A DNA stretch of 9,357 bases from a virus (IMGVR_UViG_2537562195_000004); one strand, 5' to 3'; counted from the first letter of the stretch, positions 1,739 through 8,990 are shown. Numbers and translations: made by a program. The notes: generated from the sequence alone by a model not told the origin.

Positions 1739-1945
1739 ATGGAAGCAATCAAAAAAGTCATCTTTCGCCAGGAAGTAAAAAAACTTATCCACATTAAGGC
1801 AGACAGCACGCTGCAAAGCATGATCAACGCCGGAGAATTCCCGCAGGGTTTTCGTGTCGGTTTGCGCCGTCGCGGATGGTATGAGGAAGACGTAATCGCA
1901 TGGATGAAAGAACGAGAACAAGAAGCGCGCGGAACGACCGCTTAA
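1739..1945 (+). CDS. alpA: AlpA-family phage regulatory protein (Vis/excisionase-like helix-turn-helix)
   Basis: 68 aa; pattern ..L..MI.AGEFP.G...G.R.RGW.E.DV..WM is typical of AlpA/Vis proteins next to P4-type integrases. GAGG RBS at 1726-1729. Confidence 0.85.
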   Translation: MEAIKKVIFRQEVKKLIHIKADSTLQSMINAGEFPQGFRVGLRRRGWYEEDVIAWMKEREQEARGTTA

Positions 1946-2066
1946 CATATATAGGGCAAATGATGAACATAAAAAAAGCGGCCCCGAAATGGAGCCACCT
2001 TTCTGAACAATTAACCCGCTGCGCCGTATGTGTCAACAATCATAAGCTTGGGCATGATAACCGCGA

Positions 2067-2270
2067 TCAGGCTGGTGGGCAATTATCTTTCTTGTTGGGG
2101 CCGTATTGTGCTGCCATTTTCATCCGTTCAGAACGTGAATATTTTTTTAGAAACTCATCAAGGACAAAAGCGCATGGTGCGAATCTTTCTGATTCATGCT
2201 CGAGCGCCATATTTTCGTGCTCTCTGTTCGTTTTTTGCGATGGTGTATCGGTTGATTCTTTATTGGTCAT
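2067..2270 (-). CDS. Hypothetical small protein, 'MTN' paralogue C (second gene of RHH cassette 1)
   Basis: 67 aa. Paralogous to 2721-2948: both start MTN + S/T/Q-rich N-terminus and share C-terminal motif F.L(D/E)(E/D)F(L/V).KY(S/P)R. Start preceded by conserved ACAGG. Family unknown. Confidence 0.45.
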   Translation of the reverse strand: MTNKESTDTPSQKTNREHENMALEHESERFAPCAFVLDEFLKKYSRSERMKMAAQYGPNKKDNCPPA

Positions 2271-2278
2271 TGTGTGTA

Positions 2279-2322
2279 CCTGTAAAGCAATGCGCCGTAG
2301 TACCTCACGCCACGGCGCTGAT
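2279..2322. repeat. 44-bp conserved palindromic intergenic element, copy 1
   Basis: cctgtaaagcaatGCGCCGTagtacctcacgccACGGCGCtgat; 43/44 identical to 2957-3000. 7-bp inverted repeat GCGCCGT (2292-2298) / ACGGCGC (2312-2318) with 13-nt loop. The single difference (2309) is in the loop. Confidence 0.8.
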
Positions 2323-2327
2323 GTTTT

Positions 2328-2501
2328 TTATCCTTTGGGTTCAATACCGCGTTGCTGTAATTCTTTTCGGAGTACTCGCTTGATCCAGGTGGCTAAAGAA
2401 GTGTCACCGTCTGCTTTCGCTGCCTCTTCAAGTTGTGCTCTGAATTCTTCTGGTAGCCGCATTTGGTATGGAGGCGATCGCTTTTCCAATGGTGTTGACA
2501 T
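2328..2501 (-). CDS. Ribbon-helix-helix (Arc/Mnt/MetJ-type) DNA-binding protein; not in the supplied ORF track
   Basis: Hand translation of the minus strand: MSTPLEKRSPPYQMRLPEEFRAQLEEAAKADGDTSLATWIKRVLRKELQQRGIEPKG (57 aa, stop at 2328-2330). Fits the Arc/Mnt beta-strand/helix/helix pattern (P.x.hRhP.E.....A...G.S.N..I...L). AGGG RBS; start abuts palindromic operators. Confidence 0.7.
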   Translation of the reverse strand: MSTPLEKRSPPYQMRLPEEFRAQLEEAAKADGDTSLATWIKRVLRKELQQRGIEPKG

Positions 2502-2543
2502 GGTAATTACCCTTAATTACTATAGTTACATGGTAATTACCAT
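2495..2543 (+). promoter_or_regulatory. Divergent promoter/operator region I: sigma70-like promoter overlaid by two GGTAATTACC palindromes
   Basis: -35 TTGACA (2495-2500), 17-bp spacer, -10 TACTAT (2518-2523). Perfect palindromes GGTAATTACC at 2502-2511 and 2532-2541 (second extends to ATGGTAATTACCAT, 2530-2543); centres 30 bp apart. A possible minus-strand -10 TATAGT for the RHH gene lies in the same region. Confidence 0.5.
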
Positions 2544-2568
2544 TGTACTTACCGTTATACAAAAAACA

Positions 2569-2680
2569 ACGCCCCGCAGTGGTGGCTCACATATGGGGCG
2601 TCTAACCAAACCATTAATTGAGGTAACGATTATGGCTATAAAAGAGCATAGCTTACTCTTTATACACACACAAACGCCCC
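2569..2680 (+). repeat. Leader module copy 1 (orphan): hairpin, RBS, ATG and ~16 codons homologous to the Icd-like gene leader
   Basis: Hairpin cgcccc (2570-2575) / ggggcg (2595-2600), then tctaaccaa, GAGG, ATG at 2632 encoding MAIKEHSLLFIHTQTP (compare MVAVNHIPHLVHTQTA at 3378). Similarity then ends. On the minus strand the hairpin is followed by TTGTTTTTT, so it is terminator-like for minus-strand transcription. Confidence 0.6.
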
Positions 2681-2681
2681 G

Positions 2682-2701
2682 GAAACGGAATAATCCGTTT
2701 C
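2682..2701 (-). other. Perfect 8-bp hairpin just 3' of the upstream MTN gene (putative RNA 3'-end structure)
   Basis: GAAACGGA-ataa-TCCGTTTC, 20 nt downstream of the stop of the 2721-2948 minus-strand ORF. Confidence 0.4.
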
Positions 2702-2720
2702 ATGGTTCCGTCTTGTGCAC

Positions 2721-2948
2721 TCATCCTGGCGGTCGGTTTTTGCCGGATTTAAGCCGCCGTGGGTATTTATCGACAAAATCTTCAAGGGCAAATTTTTCTG
2801 GTGGCACTAAGCGCGGCGCTGGTGGTGGTATTTTTGTTCTGGTTAGTTCTTCCTCAAGTCTGGCGCAGGCTTCTGACTGCCTTTGCCGGATGATTTCATC
2901 ATCTTGCGTTTGCGTGTCTTGTATTGGTGATAGTGTGTTGTTGGTCAT
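2721..2948 (-). CDS. Hypothetical small protein, 'MTN' paralogue B (second gene of RHH cassette 2)
   Basis: 75 aa, paralogous to 2067-2270. Preceded by conserved ACAGGG and the 44-bp element. Family unknown. Confidence 0.45.
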   Translation of the reverse strand: MTNNTLSPIQDTQTQDDEIIRQRQSEACARLEEELTRTKIPPPAPRLVPPEKFALEDFVDKYPRRLKSGKNRPPG

Positions 2949-2956
2949 GATACTGC

Positions 2957-3000
2957 CCTGTAAAGCAATGCGCCGTAGTACCTCACACCACGGCGCTGAT
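2957..3000. repeat. 44-bp conserved palindromic intergenic element, copy 2
   Basis: 43/44 identical to 2279-2322. Same position in a 57-bp spacer between an RHH gene stop and an MTN gene start. Confidence 0.8.
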
Positions 3001-3005
3001 AGTGA

Positions 3006-3185
3006 TTATTCTGATTCTTTGGCCTTGCGACGCTGGCGGCGTTTGATTTCGCCGCGCATGGCTGCGTTTATAAACTGCCCCGTGCTTTCACCTTCTTCTT
3101 TCACGTTCTCCATGCCTTCAATAATTTCATGGGCAATACGTGCAGTTACAGATTGTGATTTTGCATTCTTTGGCCCCGTTGCCAT
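3006..3185 (-). CDS. Small RHH-like DNA-binding protein (putative repressor of the Icd-like/rep operon promoter)
   Basis: Preferred start is the ATG at 3185 (MATGPKNAKSQSVTARIAHEIIEGMENVKEEGESTGQFINAAMRGEIKRRQRRKAKESE), preceded by GAGGGG at 6-nt spacing; the track start at 3224 lacks an RBS and would place operator copy O1 in coding sequence. Pattern VTARIAHEII....GES.GQFINAAM resembles Arc/Mnt. Fold assignment is by eye. Confidence 0.5.
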   Translation of the reverse strand: MATGPKNAKSQSVTARIAHEIIEGMENVKEEGESTGQFINAAMRGEIKRRQRRKAKESE

Positions 3186-3206
3186 GTTTAACCCCTCATG
3201 TTTTTG

Positions 3207-3287
3207 GTGTAAGACAATATACACGAAAAAAAAATATTTTGAAGGGTTGACGTGTAAGACACCGTTATTTTACATTGTGTCTTACAC
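3207..3287 (+). promoter_or_regulatory. Divergent promoter/operator region II: three copies of GTGTAAGACA(C) around a + strand promoter
   Basis: GTGTAAGACA at 3207-3216, GTGTAAGACAC at 3252-3262, inverted GTGTCTTACAC at 3277-3287 (the last two form an 11-bp perfect inverted repeat with 14-bp spacer). -35 TTGACG (3247-3252), 17-18 bp spacer, -10 TTACAT/TACATT (3270-3276). Same architecture as region I with different operator sequence. Confidence 0.5.
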
Positions 3288-3318
3288 CTTGTTGATGCAA
3301 GGTACAGAAAAGACGAAA

Positions 3319-3431
3319 CCCCGCAGTGCTGGAACACATACGGGGCTTCTAACCAACAACGTAAACGAGGAGCCGTTATGGTTGCCGTAAATCATATACC
3401 ACACCTTGTACACACACAAACTGCCTTTGTG
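3319..3431 (+). repeat. Leader module copy 2 (functional copy, upstream of and overlapping the Icd-like gene start)
   Basis: Hairpin ccccg (3319-3323) / cgggg (3341-3345), tctaaccaa, GAGGAG RBS, ATG at 3378. 33/39 identical to copy 1 over the hairpin core by manual alignment. On the minus strand the hairpin is followed by a U-rich stretch. Confidence 0.6.
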
Positions 3432-3578
3432 TGGCGTTTTCTGGCACTGAGTGCCGGAGAATCTCAAATCATCCACGTAACCGCCTGGACGGAACGCGAA
3501 GCGCGTAGCCGTTGCCCGTCCGGTTGTGTTGCTGTATTCGCTGCCCGTATTCGTCAGGGGGAAACCTATGCACAATAA
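3378..3578 (+). CDS. Small protein, probably Icd-like (host cell division inhibitor-like, as in P1 icd / P4 kil region)
   Basis: 66 aa; pattern F.WRF.A......II.V.A.TEREAR...P.G.V.VFAARI matches my recollection of Icd-like proteins annotated in P4-like prophages. Strong RBS. Family assignment from memory, not a search. Confidence 0.5.
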   Translation: MVAVNHIPHLVHTQTAFVWRFLALSAGESQIIHVTAWTEREARSRCPSGCVAVFAARIRQGETYAQ

Positions 3579-3798
3579 AACCACACCGGACGCAGCAGAA
3601 GAAGCAATGCAAATACTGATACGTGCGCTCGTTGATGTTACCCACATGGTGGAGATTATGGAGAGAAAATCACAGTCGGAGCACGACAAAAGAAAACTTA
3701 AAACAATAAAAATAATTGCCAAAAACTCGCTGATAAAAGTTACAGACATCCTTAATGAGGACATTAAAAGAATAAGGGAGAAAATTTGTGATGCATAA
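3568..3798 (+). CDS. Hypothetical small basic helical protein X1 (in AT-rich insert)
   Basis: ATG at 3568 with AGGGGGA RBS; overlaps the Icd-like stop by 11 nt. 76 aa, K/R-rich. Local GC about 33% against about 50-60% in flanks. No family recognised. Confidence 0.5.
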   Translation: MHNKTTPDAAEEAMQILIRALVDVTHMVEIMERKSQSEHDKRKLKTIKIIAKNSLIKVTDILNEDIKRIREKICDA

Positions 3799-4023: not shown

Positions 4024-4323
4024 ATGAAACTTAAATATTCTGGCTTAACTGCCAGTGGCAACACTCACCCTAAATTTACGCGCGGTGATATTTACCGCGA
4101 CCAGTACGGCGGCACGGTAATGATTAAGGGCGTGGCGGGACGGTGCGTAACTTACCGCCGTGAAGGTTACGAATATGATTGCGTGATGCCTGTTTATCAG
4201 TTCCGGCGTGATTTTTCTCTGGTACAGACCGCGCCGCATAACGTGCCCACCAGCAACGCCAGGGCACGGGCAAACATCCAGAAGCTGAAAACCATGATTA
4301 ACGGATTCAGGGGTAAAAAATGA
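4024..4323 (+). CDS. Hypothetical protein X3
   Basis: 99 aa; GGAG upstream. Stop TGA overlaps the rep ATG (ATGA at 4320-4323). No family recognised. Confidence 0.5.
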   Translation: MKLKYSGLTASGNTHPKFTRGDIYRDQYGGTVMIKGVAGRCVTYRREGYEYDCVMPVYQFRRDFSLVQTAPHNVPTSNARARANIQKLKTMINGFRGKK

Positions 4324-5729
4324 AACTGGCACCGAACGTAAAACTATTACCGAAAGACAAATACACCGATGCGATTATTTTTGCGGGTATTGATGCTCAC
4401 TCATTCGCAGAGCATTACATCATTGCACAGGCAAAAAAAGCAGGAGATCCAGTCCCTCCCGTTTATCTGGGGCGTTATCAGTTAAGCGAACTGGATAACC
4501 TCCAGATTGTTGATGATGGGCGATACAGGGCGACGGTGATACGCGCCGGAAATATTGAAGAGCCGCAGCTGTTAACCATCGCCACGAAACTGGCGATCGC
4601 CGGAGTCCAGGAGGCGCGGCTACTTTCTGAAAATTTCGAATTGCTGGAGGAATGGAGCGACCAGCTTCCACGGCTTAGGGAGGCATGGGAACGCGGGGAA
4701 AGCCTGGTCATGAAAAAAATCCCCCAGCGAAAAACCACGCTACCGATGAGCGTTGGATCTACCGGATACGACACACAGCTTGATTACGTGGTAAAGGGGA
4801 TTATTCCGGCATCGTCGCTTTGCAGCATATACGGGGCGAGCGGTTCCTATAAATCATTCCTTGCCGGATCGTGGGCGTGTCACGTTTCCACGGGCCGCCA
4901 GTGGGGAGGCCGCAGGGTGGCGCATGGCGCTGTTCTCTATGTGGTTGGTGAAGGCGGTATCGGCGTTCCGCGTCGTGTAAAAGCCTGGGAGGTTGTACAC
5001 GGGGAGCAGGTGAAAAATCTGTATCTGGTAAACCGTCCGGTCTTTCCGGCTGTCCCGCTTGATGTTGATGAACTGGTTATCGCTGCCCGTCAGGTGGAGC
5101 GGGAAACGGGTAAACCTGTACGCATGATTATTCTGGATACGCTGGCGCGGTGCTTTGGTGGCAATGATGAAAATGATTCCCGTGATATGGGGGCGTTTAT
5201 CCGTGGTTGTGACGAACTGAAACGGCGCACAGGGGCCACGGTGCTGGTGGTTCACCATTCCGGCAAGGATGAGACGAAAGGCGCGCGCGGTTCCAGTGCA
5301 TTTCGTGCTTCGCTGGATGCTGAATACCGGATACGCAGAGAGGACGCAGGCAGCGAAGCGCTGGTTATCTCATGCACCAAAATGAAGGACGCGGAGGAAC
5401 TCAAAGAAGCCGCATATGACTTACGCGTGGTGGAGCTTTTTACCGACGCTGACGGGGAGTTAATTACGTCGCTGGTGGTGGTGGATAAGCCGCGCCCTCC
5501 CGTTGAACTGGAGCGCATCGAGGAGGCAGGCAACAAGACGGAAAACCATACCGCGCTATGGGGGTGCATACGTTCACGCACACAGCACGGCGACAAGTGC
5601 ACGATCCCGCTGTTACGTGACGATATGAAAAAGCTGGGGTATGACACAAAACACCTTAAACGATGGTTAGCCAAACTGGAAAAAGACGACGTGATCTACA
5701 TTGACGGTGATGATGTAGGACCACTGTAA
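4320..5729 (+). CDS. RepA-like replicative ATPase/helicase (RecA-fold, AAA_25-type) with a C-terminal putative origin-binding domain
   Basis: 469 aa. Walker A GASGSYKS, Walker B RMIILD, and VLVVHHSGKD motif typical of AAA_25/RepA-like phage and plasmid helicases. Lies immediately upstream of the iteron array. Confidence 0.8.
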   Translation: MKLAPNVKLLPKDKYTDAIIFAGIDAHSFAEHYIIAQAKKAGDPVPPVYLGRYQLSELDNLQIVDDGRYRATVIRAGNIEEPQLLTIATKLAIAGVQEARLLSENFELLEEWSDQLPRLREAWERGESLVMKKIPQRKTTLPMSVGSTGYDTQLDYVVKGIIPASSLCSIYGASGSYKSFLAGSWACHVSTGRQWGGRRVAHGAVLYVVGEGGIGVPRRVKAWEVVHGEQVKNLYLVNRPVFPAVPLDVDELVIAARQVERETGKPVRMIILDTLARCFGGNDENDSRDMGAFIRGCDELKRRTGATVLVVHHSGKDETKGARGSSAFRASLDAEYRIRREDAGSEALVISCTKMKDAEELKEAAYDLRVVELFTDADGELITSLVVVDKPRPPVELERIEEAGNKTENHTALWGCIRSRTQHGDKCTIPLLRDDMKKLGYDTKHLKRWLAKLEKDDVIYIDGDDVGPL

Positions 5730-5931: not shown

Positions 5932-6189
5932 ATGACTCAAAAACACAGAGACAGAACAGAGCCAAAATATAAAGCGTTAGACATGACAGAGCACGCCTTA
6001 AAGGTGGCAATCAGAACGATAGACCGCCACGCGGGGGAAGGATACGCGAAAGAACATCCCGACCTGATAAGCGCATTCATGACCACAGCAGCGGCAAACT
6101 TTGCCACGCTGACAGAACGTGAGATTGCCGAAGCGGAACAGGTAACAACCATCAACGTAAAAACCGGAGAGTCAGGCGATGATACATGA
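5932..6189 (+). CDS. Hypothetical protein downstream of the origin
   Basis: Preferred start ATG 5932 with GAGGTGGG RBS (the last iteron). The longer track ORF from 5800 translates the iterons (KKWAKKVGRGG) and is probably not real. Overlaps the PerC-like gene start by 11 nt. Confidence 0.45.
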   Translation: MTQKHRDRTEPKYKALDMTEHALKVAIRTIDRHAGEGYAKEHPDLISAFMTTAAANFATLTEREIAEAEQVTTINVKTGESGDDT

Positions 6190-6451
6190 CCGCATAGCGG
6201 AGGAACTCGAGGCGAAAGGATTTTACCGGAGGGCGGCGGCGCGATGGGGTGAAGTCATGCAGCTGGTGGAGACAGACAAGGAACGGCATCAGGTTACGAT
6301 GCGACGGCTGGAATGTTCCAGGAAAGCACAGAGGCAACCGGAGCCGCCGGATAACTTCGGAGACCTGAGAAAGGCAGTAGATCGCACTTATGCTGAAATG
6401 GGTATAGATGGTGTAAGCGATGAAATATGGTGTAATTACCAGGACAGCTAA
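6179..6451 (+). CDS. PerC-family transcriptional regulator (PerC/Pch-like)
   Basis: 90 aa; N-terminal DRIAEELEAKGFYRRAAARWGEVM matches the PerC-family signature (AE.LE.KG.WRRAA.RW) as I recall it. Followed by an intrinsic terminator. Confidence 0.6.
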   Translation: MIHDRIAEELEAKGFYRRAAARWGEVMQLVETDKERHQVTMRRLECSRKAQRQPEPPDNFGDLRKAVDRTYAEMGIDGVSDEIWCNYQDS

Positions 6452-6909: not shown

Positions 6910-7104
6910 ATGCCAGAGAACAACACCAGAAAGCCGGATAAAAGTGCCACGGTACACATAGACGCCGGAACTATGGAGAAGATCGAACGCTATCAGCAGT
7001 TCATCAAAGATAATCACCCGGGTATGCCGGTACCCACGAAAGGACAAATCACACGCAGCGCGGTTGAATACTGGTACCAGGCAACGTTAGGAGCCTGGCT
7101 ATGA
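6910..7104 (+). CDS. Small protein, possible RHH-like DNA-binding protein, translationally coupled to the protease-capsid gene
   Basis: ATG at 6910 preceded by GGAGG (6897-6901). Stop TGA overlaps the next ATG (ATGA at 7101-7104). Pattern TVHIDAGTMEKIERYQQFI...TKGQITRSAVEYWYQ is compatible with strand-helix-helix. Weak call. Confidence 0.4.
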   Translation: MPENNTRKPDKSATVHIDAGTMEKIERYQQFIKDNHPGMPVPTKGQITRSAVEYWYQATLGAWL

Positions 7105-8990
7105 AAACATGGTTTTCCATTAAGGCTATGGCAGATGTTGTCTATGTGCGTATTTATGACGAGATCGGCGGGTACGGTGTAAAAGCATCGACACTTACTG
7201 ACGAGATCAACGCGTGCGGTAATGCGTCTGAAATCCATCTTCGCATCCATTCACCTGGTGGCGACATCTTTGAAGGGCTGGCTATCTATAACGCCCTGAA
7301 AAATCATCCGGCAAAGAAAATTGTACACATTGAAGGCATGGCGGCTTCTATGGCCTCGTTTATTGCCATGTGTGGCGATCACATCGTTATGCCTGAAAAC
7401 GCGATGATGATGATACATGCCCCCCGTGGTGTTACTGCCGGAGTGTCGGGCGACGTTCGCCGCTTTGCTGACCTGATGGACAAGCTGGGCGACACGATGG
7501 CGGAAACCTACGCCGGAAGAACGGGCAGGAGCAAACAGGAGATCACCTCAATGATGGAGGCGGAAACCTGGATGGATGGCAATGAGTGTAAGGCTAACGG
7601 CTTCGCAGATGAGGTTATACCCGCGATTACAGCAATGGCCCGAATTGAATCAAAACGAATCGGAGATTTTTCAAATATGCCGGAAAAAATTAAAAGCATG
7701 ATCAGCCAGAAAACTGGCAGTGGCGAACAGGAACGACTTAACGGAATCCGTGAATTGTTTGGCACCTTCAACGGAAGATATAACGACCTGGCTATAAGTT
7801 GTCTTGCGGATTCAGAATGTAGCGTTGAGAATGCACGCGAACGCCTTTTACTCGCTATGGGTAAAGAATCAACGCCAACAAACAAAACCACCCCCGCAAA
7901 TCTTTACTACGCGTACACGGATAACGGCAATATAACCGGCGATGCCATGCGTCAGGGGCTTAATGCGCGTCTTGGTCACGAACGGGCCGAACGCGGTAAT
8001 CCTTACGCCATGATGAGCCTTTTCGATATGGCACAGGCATCATTAACCCATCGTGGTATAAGCACGGGCAGCTACAGCACACGCTCGCAGATAGTAAACG
8101 CGGCATTCACCCACAGCAGCAGCGATTTTACCGATATCCTTGCTGGTGGCGCTGAAAAATCAGTGCTTGCAGGCTGGGAGCACAGCGGCGAAACATTCCG
8201 CCAGTGGACGAAAAAAGGTTCCCTTTCAAACTTCCGGGAAGCCCGCCGCGTTGGTATGAATGGCTTCTCAACGTTAAACAAAGTGCCGGAAGGGGCAGAA
8301 TATAAATACATTACCACCAGCGATCGCGGTGAACCCATCGCGCTGGCTACTTACGGGAATATTTTCAGCATTACCCGCCAGGCGATAATCAATGATGACC
8401 TTGATCAGTTATCAACGGTGCCAATGGCTATGGGCCGTGCAGCATCAAGAACGGTGGGAAATCTGGTTAATCTGGTGCTTACAGGCAACGTAAAACTTTC
8501 TGACGGAATAGCGCTGTTTGACAAAAAACACAGCAACCTGATTGAAGCAGGACTGACAACACCGGGACTTAGTGCAGCACGTCACCTGATGCGCACACAG
8601 AAGGACAAAAATGGCGAAGTGCTGAATATTGCGCCTAAATTCCTTTTAGTTCCGGCAGCACTGGAAGATCGCGCGTTGCAGATGATTAACTCAACCGCAC
8701 CTTTCGGGGCTGATAAAAACAGCGGGATCTTTAACCCGTATCACAAGCTACTTGATATCATCGTCGATCCCCGCCTTGATGATATCAGCGAAAAACAATG
8801 GTACATGCTTTCCGCACAGGGAACAGACACAATCGAGGTGGCTTATCTTGATGGCAATGACGAGCCTTACCTTGAACAGCAGGAAGGTTTTATCGTTGAC
8901 GGCGTGGCCTGGAAAGTCCGTATTGATGCAGGTGTGGCAGCTCTGGATTATCGCGGTATGGTCAAATCAGGCGGGACAGATTCACTATGA
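7101..8990 (+). CDS. Prohead protease (ClpP-like, S14 family) fused to a large C-terminal capsid-like domain
   Basis: 629 aa. N-terminal ~190 aa has ClpP-type motifs: GMAASMAS (catalytic Ser context, compare ClpP GQAASMG) and MMIHAPRG (compare MIHQP). The ~440-aa C-terminal part is of capsid-protein size and is followed by a strong terminator; the capsid assignment is an inference (confidence about 0.55), the protease assignment is stronger. Confidence 0.8.
   Translation: MKTWFSIKAMADVVYVRIYDEIGGYGVKASTLTDEINACGNASEIHLRIHSPGGDIFEGLAIYNALKNHPAKKIVHIEGMAASMASFIAMCGDHIVMPENAMMMIHAPRGVTAGVSGDVRRFADLMDKLGDTMAETYAGRTGRSKQEITSMMEAETWMDGNECKANGFADEVIPAITAMARIESKRIGDFSNMPEKIKSMISQKTGSGEQERLNGIRELFGTFNGRYNDLAISCLADSECSVENARERLLLAMGKESTPTNKTTPANLYYAYTDNGNITGDAMRQGLNARLGHERAERGNPYAMMSLFDMAQASLTHRGISTGSYSTRSQIVNAAFTHSSSDFTDILAGGAEKSVLAGWEHSGETFRQWTKKGSLSNFREARRVGMNGFSTLNKVPEGAEYKYITTSDRGEPIALATYGNIFSITRQAIINDDLDQLSTVPMAMGRAASRTVGNLVNLVLTGNVKLSDGIALFDKKHSNLIEAGLTTPGLSAARHLMRTQKDKNGEVLNIAPKFLLVPAALEDRALQMINSTAPFGADKNSGIFNPYHKLLDIIVDPRLDDISEKQWYMLSAQGTDTIEVAYLDGNDEPYLEQQEGFIVDGVAWKVRIDAGVAALDYRGMVKSGGTDSL

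Follow-up and report, generated by a model that had tools for sequence, protein, structure and literature searches.

Two candidate ribbon-helix-helix repressor cassettes in series upstream of the replication operon of an Escherichia coli phage satellite

The island and its two minus-strand cassettes

The stretch of DNA analyzed here (the window, 9,357 nucleotides) is a 9.4-kb island between tRNA-Pro and yejO. Its size and site are those of Gram-negative PICI-type elements (about 10 kb, at a tRNA/att site), which we define by int, alpA, and a primase or replicase at such a site without a full structural or lysis set; its genes include int, an alpA-like gene, DUF4222, a RepA helicase, PerC, and one ClpP-capsid fusion gene, and its zones agree with those in PMC10111431. 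We conclude that the window is an E. coli PICI-type phage satellite at tRNA-Pro; induction and packaging by a helper phage are predicted from its type only. Up to 7 such islands occur per E. coli genome, and strain 4 has 5 matching places. Neither the window DNA nor MTN2 or RHH1 had a match in the phage-record collection, and PADLOC found no defence system in the window, a Cas8g match of 17.6 bits being dismissed as noise. The alpA-like gene is the last of the integration zone, and both minus-strand cassettes sit between this upstream neighbor and the icd-rep operon. The features of the region are as follows.

1739-1945, plus strand: alpA-like helix-turn-helix gene (Pfam Phage_AlpA, E 0.003; PGAP: 'helix-turn-helix transcriptional regulator')
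1885-3390, plus strand: stop-free frame antisense to both cassettes, ending 13 nt inside icd, with the orphan-leader ATG (2632) in frame
1971-1999, minus strand: intrinsic terminator of the left RHH2-MTN2 operon, GGCUCCAUUUCGGGGCC then U7 (alignment and sequence)
2067-2270, minus strand: MTN2, 67 aa, fast-evolving, motif FVLDEFLKKY (phrog_21027, E 3e-12; dN/dS 0.17-0.39)
2271-2327, minus strand: spacer 2, hairpin at 2292-2318 (repeat D1; RNA fold of -16.9 kcal/mol on the minus-strand transcript)
2328-2501, minus strand: RHH2, 57-aa Arc-like RHH repressor candidate (Pfam Arc, E 0.008; phrog_228 'Arc-like repressor', 5e-7)
2495-2556, plus strand: left control region with promoter P2, TTGACA at 2495-2500, 17-bp spacing, TACTAT at 2518-2523 (promoter scan; consensus match)
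2569-2631, plus strand: leader 2, hairpin at 2569-2601, tail CUAACCA at 2602-2608, and a small SD-presenting stem (repeat D2, covariation, fold)
2632-2720, plus strand: truncated icd start and junction, 15 homologous codons, MAIKEHSLLFIHTQT (sequence comparison with icd)
2721-2948, minus strand: MTN1, 75 aa, conserved C-terminus KFALEDFVDKYPRRLKSGKNRPPG (17 clusters, all E. coli; dN/dS 0.35)
2949-3005, minus strand: spacer 1, terminator-like hairpin at 2970-2996 (fold of -24.3 kcal/mol, z -3.3)
3006-3185, minus strand: RHH1, 59-aa YlcI/YnfO-family RHH repressor candidate (NF041551, 64.8 bits)
3206-3287, plus strand: right control region with promoter P1, TTGACG at 3247-3252, 18-bp spacing, TACATT at 3271-3276 (promoter scan; consensus match)
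3315-3377, plus strand: leader 1, hairpin at 3315-3349, tail UCUAACCA, and SD stem (repeat, covariation, fold)
3378-3578, plus strand: Icd-like gene, first of the replication operon (NF033153, E 6e-18)
3′ of the Icd-like gene, plus strand: two small ORFs, DUF4222 (4024-4323), and a RepA-family helicase (4320-5729) (annotation; Pfam DUF4222)

A preliminary description of this DNA had placed four minus-strand ORFs at 3185-3006, 2948-2721, 2501-2328, and 2270-2067, and these hold (59, 75, 57, and 67 aa); their starts differ by multiples of 3, and the genes therefore share one reading frame, as it had said. The two cassettes also have the identical layout claimed for them, an RHH gene, a hairpin spacer, and a small MTN gene; the spacer is exactly 57 bp in both cassettes of the window, and the same spacing is exact in every copy examined (>15 copies at 13 loci). 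Repeat and promoter scans bear out the arrangement opposite each cassette: a sigma-70 promoter on the plus strand, dyad operators particular to that cassette, and a leader homologous to the other one. Compared between the cassettes, repeat D1 (spacer and MTN start) matches at 81% over 75 nt and includes a 44-nt core with just 1-2 mismatches, repeat D2 (leader) matches at 80% over 54 nt, and the flanks of the RHH genes are 80-96% identical. Spacer 2, whose sequence recurs in 1,671 E. coli genomes, at 2,729 places in all, is read as a probable leaky terminator or attenuator and recombination joint; spacer 1 has a second small hairpin over the MTN1 ribosome-binding region. Read on the plus strand, the terminator at 1971-1999 has a C-A mismatch in place of one pair and is weaker; it is kept in L002-L004 and L075-L077. 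Complementarity between the leader loop and the region 3′ of MTN2 (repeats I3 and I5) was rejected as a chance resemblance to the terminator hairpin. PGAP often overlooks the RHH and MTN genes and annotates plus-strand 'Icd-like' or 'ash' pseudogenes instead.

The leader is a covariation-supported RNA motif without an Rfam entry: Rfam searches of the whole window (E<=1) and of 2480-3460 (E<=10) returned no family for the leaders or spacers, and C4/IsrK (RF01695, RF01394, RF03163) and a1b1 had no match in the window, even at E<=10 over 2480-3460. Applied to other loci, the same search did detect these RNAs: L002, L004, and L078 have C4 matches of 69-78 bits, and L002 and L004 also have IsrK matches that exceed the gathering score. 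The left leader had been called an orphan, which is correct insofar as Icd homology downstream of it extends for only 15 codons, but the ORF that begins there stays open for 252 codons, to 3390. The segment that follows this leader, 2632-2720, also holds, on the minus strand, the 3′ end and a terminator-like hairpin of the MTN1 operon (site 2690-2677), and is 95-97% identical in L002, L003, and L075; its 88-nt junction is common to all two-cassette loci and is present in about 110-125 of the 5,426 E. coli genomes searched.

Candidate repressors and candidate operators

Both RHH proteins model as ribbon-helix-helix, as the preliminary description had supposed. The strand-helix-helix of about 45 residues that defines the fold is present; the AF2 model of RHH2 has Foldseek matches to RHH proteins; and the fold neighbors of both candidates include Arc and many RHH antitoxins. 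RHH proteins share a G-x-S/T/N turn between helix A and helix B, which appears as E-G-E-S-T in RHH1 and D-G-D-T-S in RHH2, with the turn residues (GES and GDT) invariant or nearly so in the respective alignments (A3 and A2). Sequence searches of the PDB with RHH profiles gave only spurious matches, to designed helical repeats.

The two proteins touch one NCBIfam model, NF041551 (cut-off 30 bits), which RHH1 exceeds at 64.8 bits; RHH2 is not placed in the YlcI/YnfO family because its 20.1 bits (E 5e-4) fall below that cut-off. RHH1 does not match Pfam Arc (PF03869, gathering threshold 20.4 bits), and RHH2 reaches 16.5 bits (E 0.008); as RHH2 matches phrog_228 at 5e-7, we call it Arc-like without assigning it to the Pfam family. 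BLASTP gives no alignment between RHH1 and RHH2, and hhalign only a weak in-register match (probability 31%).

All four ORFs evolve as coding sequence, with dN/dS of 0.01-0.27 for the RHH genes and 0.17-0.39 for MTN, indicating purifying selection. The RHH2 type forms 93 clusters across Gammaproteobacteria and keeps 65-96% amino-acid identity across Enterobacterales, Pasteurellaceae, Aeromonadaceae, and Orbaceae; in Xenorhabdus and Pasteurella the context is int, alpA, RHH, then divergent small ORFs, DUF4222, and primase.

Operators lie over the -35/spacer and at +1 of both plus-strand promoters. On the left, ATGGTAATTACC dyads occupy 2500-2511 and 2532-2543, the operator ATGGTAATTACCAT spans 2530-2543, and a degenerate third copy covers 2540-2556; a candidate -10 of the minus-strand RHH2 promoter, TACAAT (ATTGTA on the plus strand), lies within 2540-2550, read by eye only. 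This layout recurs near base-for-base in Xenorhabdus and is recognizable in Pasteurella. On the right, GGTGTAAGACA at 3206-3216 overlies the -10/+1 of the RHH1 promoter, which a promoter scan places on the minus strand at 3243-3216; GTGTAAGACAC at 3252-3262 lies at the -35/spacer of P1; and the inverted copy GTGTCTTACAC at 3277-3287 lies at its +1. The same three positions hold allele-specific sequences in L002, L003, L075, L076, and L079-L084.

The operators of the two cassettes had been said to differ; they do, and across about 80 related loci (roughly 10 allele classes) operator sequence co-varies with the ribbon residues of the RHH allele. Specifically, i) in the RHH2 family, ribbon KRSPQYQM is paired with GGTAATTACC, K[ST]xQYQI with TGTAATTACA, RSPQFPM with GGTATATACC, and RRGNPPFQF with GTGTAATTACAC-like dyads; ii) five YlcI ribbon alleles are matched to five operator sequences at the same three positions; and iii) two YlcI ribbon/operator pairs recur on different backbones, one in the window and L082, the other in L075 and L080. 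Dyads at the promoters and ribbon co-variation lend indirect support to RHH dimers that would bind these operators via the N-terminal ribbon, and the approximately 10 natural ribbon/operator pairs constitute a ready specificity table for RHH-DNA recognition.

Two probable switches in series: proposed role, origin, and accessory features

We consider it likely, from the sequence comparisons above, that the window carries, ahead of its replication operon, a series of two repressor-operator switches, each complete and heterologous to the other. In each, the gene of a 57-59-aa RHH protein would be read leftward and diverge from a strong predicted sigma-70 promoter that points rightward, and 2-3 allele-specific dyads lie over the -35/spacer and +1 of that promoter as well as over the repressor's own predicted promoter. 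From the position of these dyads and their co-variation with the ribbon, we infer that bound RHH would shut the rightward promoter and autoregulate; when active, the promoter would feed the structured leader and then icd-like, DUF4222, and RepA helicase genes. The right switch (YlcI/YnfO-type RHH1 with GTGTAAGACAC) would control the operon directly; the left (Arc-like RHH2 with ATGGTAATTACCAT) appears to be a complete version of the module by which single-cassette islands, and those of many other genera, would control this operon. Published work on E. coli PICIs makes AlpA, rather than a repressor, the key to induction; AlpA was described in 2018 as an activator, and the global repressor in Gram-negative PICIs as unclear (PMC6092414). 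A candidate for that master repressor is the divergent RHH gene, which is conserved with its matching operators in hosts that range from E. coli to Pasteurella and Gilliamella.

Whether the left promoter is still functionally connected to the operon is a matter on which we lean slightly toward doubt. Its transcript would run antisense through the right cassette, and the ORF that begins at the leader ATG has no stop before the icd start; such read-through might end at the spacer-1 hairpin. If the connection holds, the replication operon would be switched on by relief of one repressor or the other, and left transcription would oppose RHH1 expression.

The left module could instead be a dead leftover of recombination with no role in cis, and at most trans-immunity against islands with the GGTAATTACC operator. 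Its downstream ORF does retain just 15 icd codons, which speaks for a remnant; moreover, a genome may harbor several such islands (as noted for strain 4), so a role in trans is plausible. We nevertheless regard a dead remnant as unlikely, since RHH2 has a dN/dS of 0.01 against single-cassette copies over 24-25 synonymous changes; its palindromic operators have no mismatch and its promoter has a consensus -35; allele and operator have been exchanged together, as a block, at the left position (L002, L075); the stacked form is found in about 110 genomes at 90-100% identity; and in all four two-cassette loci, which carry three different right-hand alleles, no stop interrupts the leader ORF over the roughly 245 codons before the icd start. 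Trans-immunity and cis roles of the left cassette could also coexist.

One- and two-cassette variants both exist, as expected from the proposal that the pair is a duplicated switch whose specificity has diverged, but the proposal itself fails. In-situ tandem duplication of one immunity module followed by repressor and operator divergence would account for the identical architecture, the exact 57-bp spacers, the homologous leaders and spacers, and the common NCBIfam model, and would make the stacked RHH1-type and RHH2-type modules mutual closest relatives; the opposite is seen. The RHH genes cannot be aligned by BLASTP while their flanks remain 80-96% identical, a mosaic rather than uniform divergence; each allele is also found by itself, in single-cassette islands (L004, L077, L076, L079-L084) where it drives a complete icd-rep operon, and the RHH2 type is present with its own operator in many genera; and the one shared 88-nt junction cuts icd after 15 codons, identically in all stacked loci. 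Duplication is thus highly improbable, and the arrangement is, to judge from these comparisons, the product of stacking by recombination of two old, heterologous, heteroimmune modules. The second module would have joined by recombination after codon 15 of the first module's icd, and RHH-plus-operator units would later have been swapped whole, the conserved 57-bp spacer bounding them on one side and the conserved leader on the other. Heteroimmune stacking, whether RHH with RHH or RHH with C4 RNA, suggests how satellites may widen or tighten their induction logic.

The MTN proteins had been called paralogues. BLASTP does not align MTN1 with MTN2, and hhalign gives a weak in-register match (probability 29%), but a common short motif, F-A-L-E-x-F-[LV]-x-K-[YHC], connects them via other loci. 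An exhaustive search with MTN2 of 1.84 billion representatives gave 4 matches, only 2 of them credible. Could each RHH-MTN pair be a type II toxin-antitoxin module? The gene order (RHH first, small gene second), the source label 'HicB family antitoxin' on some RHH2 homologs, and the many RHH antitoxins among the fold neighbors might suggest so, but we think it very improbable indeed: all 66 RHH2 loci examined in other species lack both an MTN-like gene and the spacer; the MTN proteins had no toxin match in Pfam, NCBIfam, PHROGs, or PADLOC; the RHH proteins are minimal (57-59 aa), without a C-terminal toxin-binding extension; a 57-bp hairpin separates the genes; and MTN type reassorts freely against RHH type among the loci compared. 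The MTN genes would rather be E. coli-level additions behind the leaky terminator hairpin of the repressor operon, and our guess, made with low confidence and by analogy with the P22 arc-ant operon, is that MTN may serve in establishment or as an accessory factor and that RHH autoregulation limits its expression.

The plus strand opposite both cassettes has no stop codon in one frame over 1.5 kb including non-coding DNA (0 observed, 11.6 expected). In 13 of 13 E. coli loci examined this frame is stop-free for 1.0-1.8 kb and joins alpA and the orphan-leader ATG to icd; in distant genera it is open by contiguous extension from the ORF1 ATG in 13 of 54 loci, or 29 of 54 when frames ending just before the ATG are counted. 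That it encodes a real 'Icd-like/Ash' protein and the minus-strand ORFs are spurious is hardly credible, despite its length in 13 loci, the plus-strand 'Icd-like' pseudogenes of PGAP, and phrog_29966 (a 188-aa profile with an Icd C-terminus), since its translation matched no family, its substitutions are spread evenly over codon positions (84/87/77), it passes through promoters, operators, and RNA hairpins, and the minus-strand RHH genes, with the low dN/dS given above, encode proteins of RHH fold from large conserved families.

We offer tentatively, with more doubt than conviction, the proposal that the frame is kept stop-free for translation as such, not for a protein, as protection against Rho-dependent polarity. 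Transcripts from an AlpA-activated alpA promoter or from the left promoter would be followed by ribosomes over 0.7-1.8 kb to the icd start; so protected, they would turn on the replication operon, and convergent transcription would turn off the repressors. If true, the view that AlpA is the inducer and the presence of a protein repressor would be reconciled, and the frame would be a case of selection for translation itself. The stop-free antisense frame and the leader absent from Rfam are new features which, if functional, would tie induction to transcription-translation coupling.

Comparison with known systems

The cassettes resemble Stl/Rpr of SaPIs and Gram-positive PICIs in position and logic: there a repressor gene next to int is divergent from the replication operon (xis-pri-rep) and keeps the island quiescent (PMC6092414). 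Stl/Rpr, however, are larger HTH proteins relieved by binding helper-phage proteins, whereas here the candidates are 57-59-aa RHH proteins, two of them stacked, and the published E. coli PICI inducer is AlpA.

With P1 immI (c4 RNA-icd-ant) and P4 CI RNA immunity the window shares an Icd-like first gene after a structured leader, and relatives of the island carry genuine IsrK and C4 RNA modules, described in Gram-negative PICIs (PMC10111431), at the same place. The window itself is without C4, IsrK, or a1b1; control would be by putative protein repressors, and the leader hairpin is another motif.

RHH1 is a member of the YlcI/YnfO family (NF041551), which includes DLP12 and Qin prophage proteins and for which no assigned function was found in the sources searched; to this family the present analysis adds a fold (RHH), a proposed genomic role, and candidate operators.

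P22 immI has two RHH repressors, Arc and Mnt, with different operators around divergent promoters, and an arc-ant operon. The likeness, seen also in the fold matches to Arc, lies in two small RHH repressors of different specificity side by side and in an autoregulating RHH gene followed by a second gene, although MTN has no similarity to P22 Ant. Both P22 repressors act on one promoter pair controlling an antirepressor, whereas here each repressor would have its own promoter, operators, and leader, in series before the replication operon.

Lambdoid phage immunity regions exchange modules as mosaics at conserved joints, and the swaps of allele plus operator between conserved flanks, with heteroimmune variants on one backbone, are of the same kind; here, however, modules are also stacked in series (RHH with RHH, or RHH with C4 RNA), up to three layers in L002.

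The island and its cassette region

The window (9,357 bases) is identical to bases 3170244-3179600 of E. coli strain 4 (NZ_CP045209.1), where the island lies between tRNA-Pro (after yejM) and yejO; it matched nothing in the phage-record collection. The whole analysis is computational, and the promoters below are consensus matches.

Genes and predicted control elements of the island (coordinates, strand, feature)
Start of island: integrase, then a small ORF
1739-1945: alpA-like HTH gene, third in gene order
2270-2067, minus: MTN2, small second gene of the left cassette
2271-2327: spacer 2, 57 bp
2501-2328, minus: RHH2, Arc-like ribbon-helix-helix candidate, 57 aa
2495-2523, plus: predicted left promoter, TTGACA-17-TACTAT
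2569-2631, plus: leader 2
2948-2721, minus: MTN1, small second gene of the right cassette
2949-3005: spacer 1, 57 bp
3185-3006, minus: RHH1, YlcI/YnfO-family ribbon-helix-helix candidate, 59 aa
3243-3216, minus: predicted RHH1 promoter (consensus scan)
3247-3276, plus: predicted right promoter, TTGACG-18-TACATT
3315-3377, plus: leader 1
3378-3578: Icd-like gene, followed by two small ORFs, DUF4222, and a RepA-family helicase
6179-6451, plus: PerC/ANR-like gene
7101-8990, plus: ClpP-protease/major-capsid fusion, then one more small ORF

This gene order is that of Gram-negative phage-inducible chromosomal islands (PICIs), and the cassette region occupies the place of the "dynamic zone" that a comparative study (PMC10111431) describes as separating the integration zone from the replication zone. 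The 9.4-kb island carries the ClpP-like prohead protease/major capsid fusion without portal, terminase, or connector genes; the fusion may be a captured late gene, or the island a reduced capsid-forming PICI. The "PerC family" gene also weakly matches the ANR (AraC negative regulator) model (E 0.002), and a paper from 2025 reports repression of the LEE by a PICI PerC-like protein (PMC11773190).

All features of the preliminary description were recovered at the coordinates it gives: four minus-strand ORFs in a shared frame form two copies of one layout around spacers of exactly 57 bp, divergent plus-strand promoters with dyads are recovered by a consensus scan, and the operators, all perfect dyads, differ between cassettes (ATGGTAATTACC twice on the left versus GTGTAAGACAC three times, one inverted, on the right). 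Each plus-strand promoter has one operator over the -35/spacer and another at +1; the third right-hand operator covers the -10/+1 of the predicted RHH1 promoter, and an RHH2 minus-strand promoter seen by eye only (TTGTTT, 16 bp, TACAAT) would start within the second operator. The leaders are indeed homologous (80% identity over 54 nt) and the left one lacks an intact operon: ATG 2632 is followed by 15 codons homologous to the Icd start (MAIKEHSLLFIHTQT versus MVAVNHIPHLVHTQT), where the homology ends.

The leader is a conserved RNA element with no matching family in Rfam. Among 35 aligned non-identical sequences, from E. coli to Oceanimonas, its 13-pair hairpin is 84% paired, whereas shifting the 3′ partners by 1-3 columns lowers this to 28-47%; compensatory changes occur in 10 of the 13 pairs, and none of 500 shuffles reached the observed values. 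RNAalifold independently predicts the same helix. The apical GUG...CAC and the single-stranded tail UCURACCA are nearly invariant, and a second small stem (CAUUA/UAAUG, CGUUA/UAACG, UCUUA/UAAGA) holds the Shine-Dalgarno sequence in its loop.

Spacer and MTN start are likewise repeated: 75 nt are 81% identical, and a core of 44 nt, in which the hairpin GCGCCGTAGTACCTCAC[G/A]CCACGGCGC lies, is almost the same in both copies. The spacer, exactly 57 bp in all copies examined, is found in 1,671 E. coli genomes (2,729 places), usually beside YlcI/YnfO genes; there are up to 7 copies per genome, and parts of the cassette region match at 5 places in strain 4, so that related islands can co-reside and cross-repression between them is possible. 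Its minus-strand RNA folds into a G+C-rich hairpin of 9-11 bp (-16.9 and -24.3 kcal/mol), after which comes AUUGCUUU; spacer 1 has another small hairpin, over the weak ribosome-binding site of MTN. The spacer may be a leaky terminator or attenuator that holds MTN expression below that of the repressor, and also a homology arm for module exchange.

Ribbon alleles, operators, and coding status

A comparison suggested by the preliminary description, whether RHH and operator co-vary among related islands, reveals co-variation in both the RHH2 and YlcI families. We examined 66 loci from other species encoding RHH2 relatives and 13 E. coli loci (individual loci carry L numbers below); the E. coli loci have modules in common and are not fully independent. 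In the RHH2 family the dyad varies with the residues at the ribbon start; in the YlcI family five ribbon alleles are paired with five operator sequences (same three positions).

Ribbon sequences and the dyads or operators found with them
RHH2 family, KRSPQYQMRL: (AT)GGTAATTACC(AT)
RHH2 family, K[ST]xQYQ[IL]RL (Pasteurellaceae, Pectobacterium, some Yersinia, Cedecea): (T)TGTAATTACA(A)
RHH2 family, EKRSPQFPMRL: GGTATATACC
RHH2 family, RRGNPPFQFRL: GTGTAAT[TG]ACAC-like dyads
YlcI family, KSQSVTARIAHE: GTGTAAGACAC (window; also L082, on a different backbone)
YlcI family, KSQSLTARIPHD: [AG]TGTAAG[AC]CAC
YlcI family, KSQTVAARVPHE: GTGTT[CT]AACAC
YlcI family, KSKKLEARVPHA: GTGGCTGACAC (L075 and L080)
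YlcI family, KSQLTTVRVPLD: GTGTGTTTCA

Short of binding assays, this co-variation is the strongest evidence at hand that the putative RHH proteins read their dyads. The RHH structures were modelled as monomers, whereas the proteins act as dimers.

The RHH and MTN ORFs evolve as coding sequence, as first proposed (dN/dS 0.01-0.39): RHH2 at 0.01 (window versus single-cassette copies: 24-25 synonymous changes, 1 non-synonymous), RHH1 at 0.05-0.08 within and 0.12-0.27 between alleles, and the MTN genes at 0.17-0.39 (MTN2-type) and 0.35 (MTN1-type), indicating that the latter are real but fast-evolving. All 17 clusters of MTN1 come from E. coli, and for MTN2 a search of 1.84 billion representatives gave two credible relatives. 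The window's two MTN proteins give no BLASTP alignment with each other, and are bridged by those of other loci, which have in common the motif F-A-L-E-x-F-[LV]-x-K-[YHC] behind a frequently basic N-terminus rich in S/T/P; none of the libraries searched gave them a function.

Several variants deserve mention. Some YlcI/YnfO alleles are 101 aa long (L003 3607-3912, L076 3062-3367, L079, L081, L084), in which ~42 inserted residues separate the RHH core from the conserved basic C-terminus (RRKAKESE). In an uncultured Enterobacterales (L019, ~4180-4360, plus) a second RHH-like ORF (MQEKRTKRNFDRLNSTAKNIRFEDELLEQIDTAAGSGKFSSWVKEACREKLERQEIEPKG) begins 6 nt after the RHH2 homologue. L078 has two tandem MTN-like genes without an RHH gene (3258-3737, plus) behind degenerate spacer remnants, divergent from a 195-aa "Phage_ASH" ORF with an Icd-like C-terminus.

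Origin of the tandem

We reconstructed the history of the tandem by module-by-module BLAST and ORF extraction. One- and two-cassette variants both exist among related islands, a possibility raised in the preliminary description, but its account of one switch duplicated and then diverged was not borne out. Specifically, i) the alleles occur singly: in L004 and L077 an RHH2-type module, 85% identical in nucleotides and with one amino-acid change, is predicted to drive directly an intact icd 97% identical to that of the window, and L076 and L079-L084 have single cassettes with YlcI-type or RRGN-type alleles; ii) all four two-cassette loci (window, L002, L003, L075), despite two backbones and three right-hand alleles, have one junction in common, consisting of leader 2 and 88 nt (2633-2720; 95-97% identity), which is present in 110-125 of 5,426 complete E. 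coli genomes; and iii) in L002 and L075 the left position is occupied by another allele, accompanied by the operators that belong to it. We conclude that the tandem most probably represents two old heteroimmune modules stacked at the 5′ end of icd, rather than local duplication and divergence.

The RHH2 module extends to Xenorhabdus and Pasteurella, where promoter, operators, leader, and start codon are kept nearly base for base and the module is predicted to drive the small-ORF, DUF4222, primase operon of PICI-like islands; the spacer hairpin and an MTN-like gene were found in none of the 66 other-species loci. The unit of exchange is the RHH-plus-operator block, with the conserved spacer on one side and the conserved leader on the other. 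L084 has its backbone in common with L003, but in L084 (2289-2855, compared with L003 2668-3912) MTN2 is joined straight to the right-hand RHH (a 101-aa YlcI allele), as would be expected if the two 57-bp spacers had recombined with each other. Across the spacer, MTN and RHH types occur in free combination, which argues against a specific MTN-RHH partnership or toxin-antitoxin pair.

Stacking is a general habit of the dynamic zone. L002 (4053-4238) and L004 (3353-3538) carry a genuine IsrK + C4 immunity RNA module (P1 c4 / P4 CI-type) between an RHH module and icd, once more following a duplicated icd 5′ end; L002 thereby has three control layers, and L078 (2329-3089) has two such RNA modules.

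A stop-free antisense frame and a proposed switch

One plus-strand frame has no stop from 1885 to 3390, antisense to all four genes and crossing the promoters, operators, leaders, and spacers of both cassettes; over this stretch the remaining plus frames contain 36 and 23 stops. Where the minus strand is non-coding (646 nt), the frame has 0 stops versus 11.6 ± 3.1 expected (dinucleotide-preserving shuffles; 0/3,000), and the coding part 0 versus 3.2 ± 1.4 (synonymous-codon permutation, P = 0.018). Each of the 13 E. coli loci examined has such an open frame, and at least seven different operator regions are represented among them (L003 2486-4309; L004 2486-3784; L076 2640-3767; L077 2553-3554; also L079-L084). 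In eight it is the icd frame itself, open for 0.96-1.8 kb as far as the stop codon of icd; its end in the remaining five lies between 26 nt before and 13 nt after an icd or leader ATG. The "orphan" leader ATG opens ~245 codons up to the icd start in all four two-cassette loci, and most loci have an in-frame ATG 11-15 nt past the alpA stop, in several cases with a good Shine-Dalgarno sequence; the frame links alpA, and also the leader ATGs, to icd. Its three codon positions carry similar numbers of substitutions (84/87/77), the larger indels have lengths divisible by three, and its translation matched no family; it is maintained open, yet not conserved as a protein. Of 54 loci from distant genera, 29 have an open frame in the operon sense that covers the antisense RHH gene, operators, and leader and reaches within 30 nt of the ORF1 ATG. 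Because of this frame, PGAP calls plus-strand pseudogenes and often misses RHH and MTN: RefSeq/PGAP annotates "Icd-like" and "ash family" pseudogenes at L004 2555-3070 and 3092-3562 and L077 2610-3203, and leaves uncalled the intact minus-strand RHH2 and MTN, whose proteins are nearly identical to the window's.

Sequence and comparison establish two predicted RHH proteins, allele-specific operator/ribbon pairs, a conserved leader, and stacking attributable to recombination, with operators placed where they would block both the rightward promoter and the repressor's own promoter. RHH binding would repress the icd-rep operon and hold the island quiescent. With lower confidence, the left promoter may still feed the operon via the translated bridge, which would make the pair of switches an OR gate; and, also less securely, upstream transcription may oppose repressor expression by convergent transcription. 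AlpA is the published inducer of E. coli PICIs, and the global repressor in Gram-negative PICIs "is unclear" (PMC6092414), a gap that RHH repression of icd-rep, if true, would fill. Our literature search found no paper on an RHH or YlcI/YnfO repressor in PICIs, and only one naming YlcI/YnfO in satellites, as a "prophage-associated protein".

Divergent repressor/operator switches and RHH repressors are already well known; what might turn out to be genuinely new is the stop-free antisense frame. We favour, without certainty, the reading that its translation shields read-through transcripts from the alpA or left-module promoter from Rho-dependent polarity. The effect of icd on ant in the P1 immI operon is Rho-dependent. 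In that related operon, expression of the downstream ant genes needs icd expression (PMC8201110). The logic of translation protecting read-through is already known in P1 immI, and we propose it here for the stop-free frame of the island.
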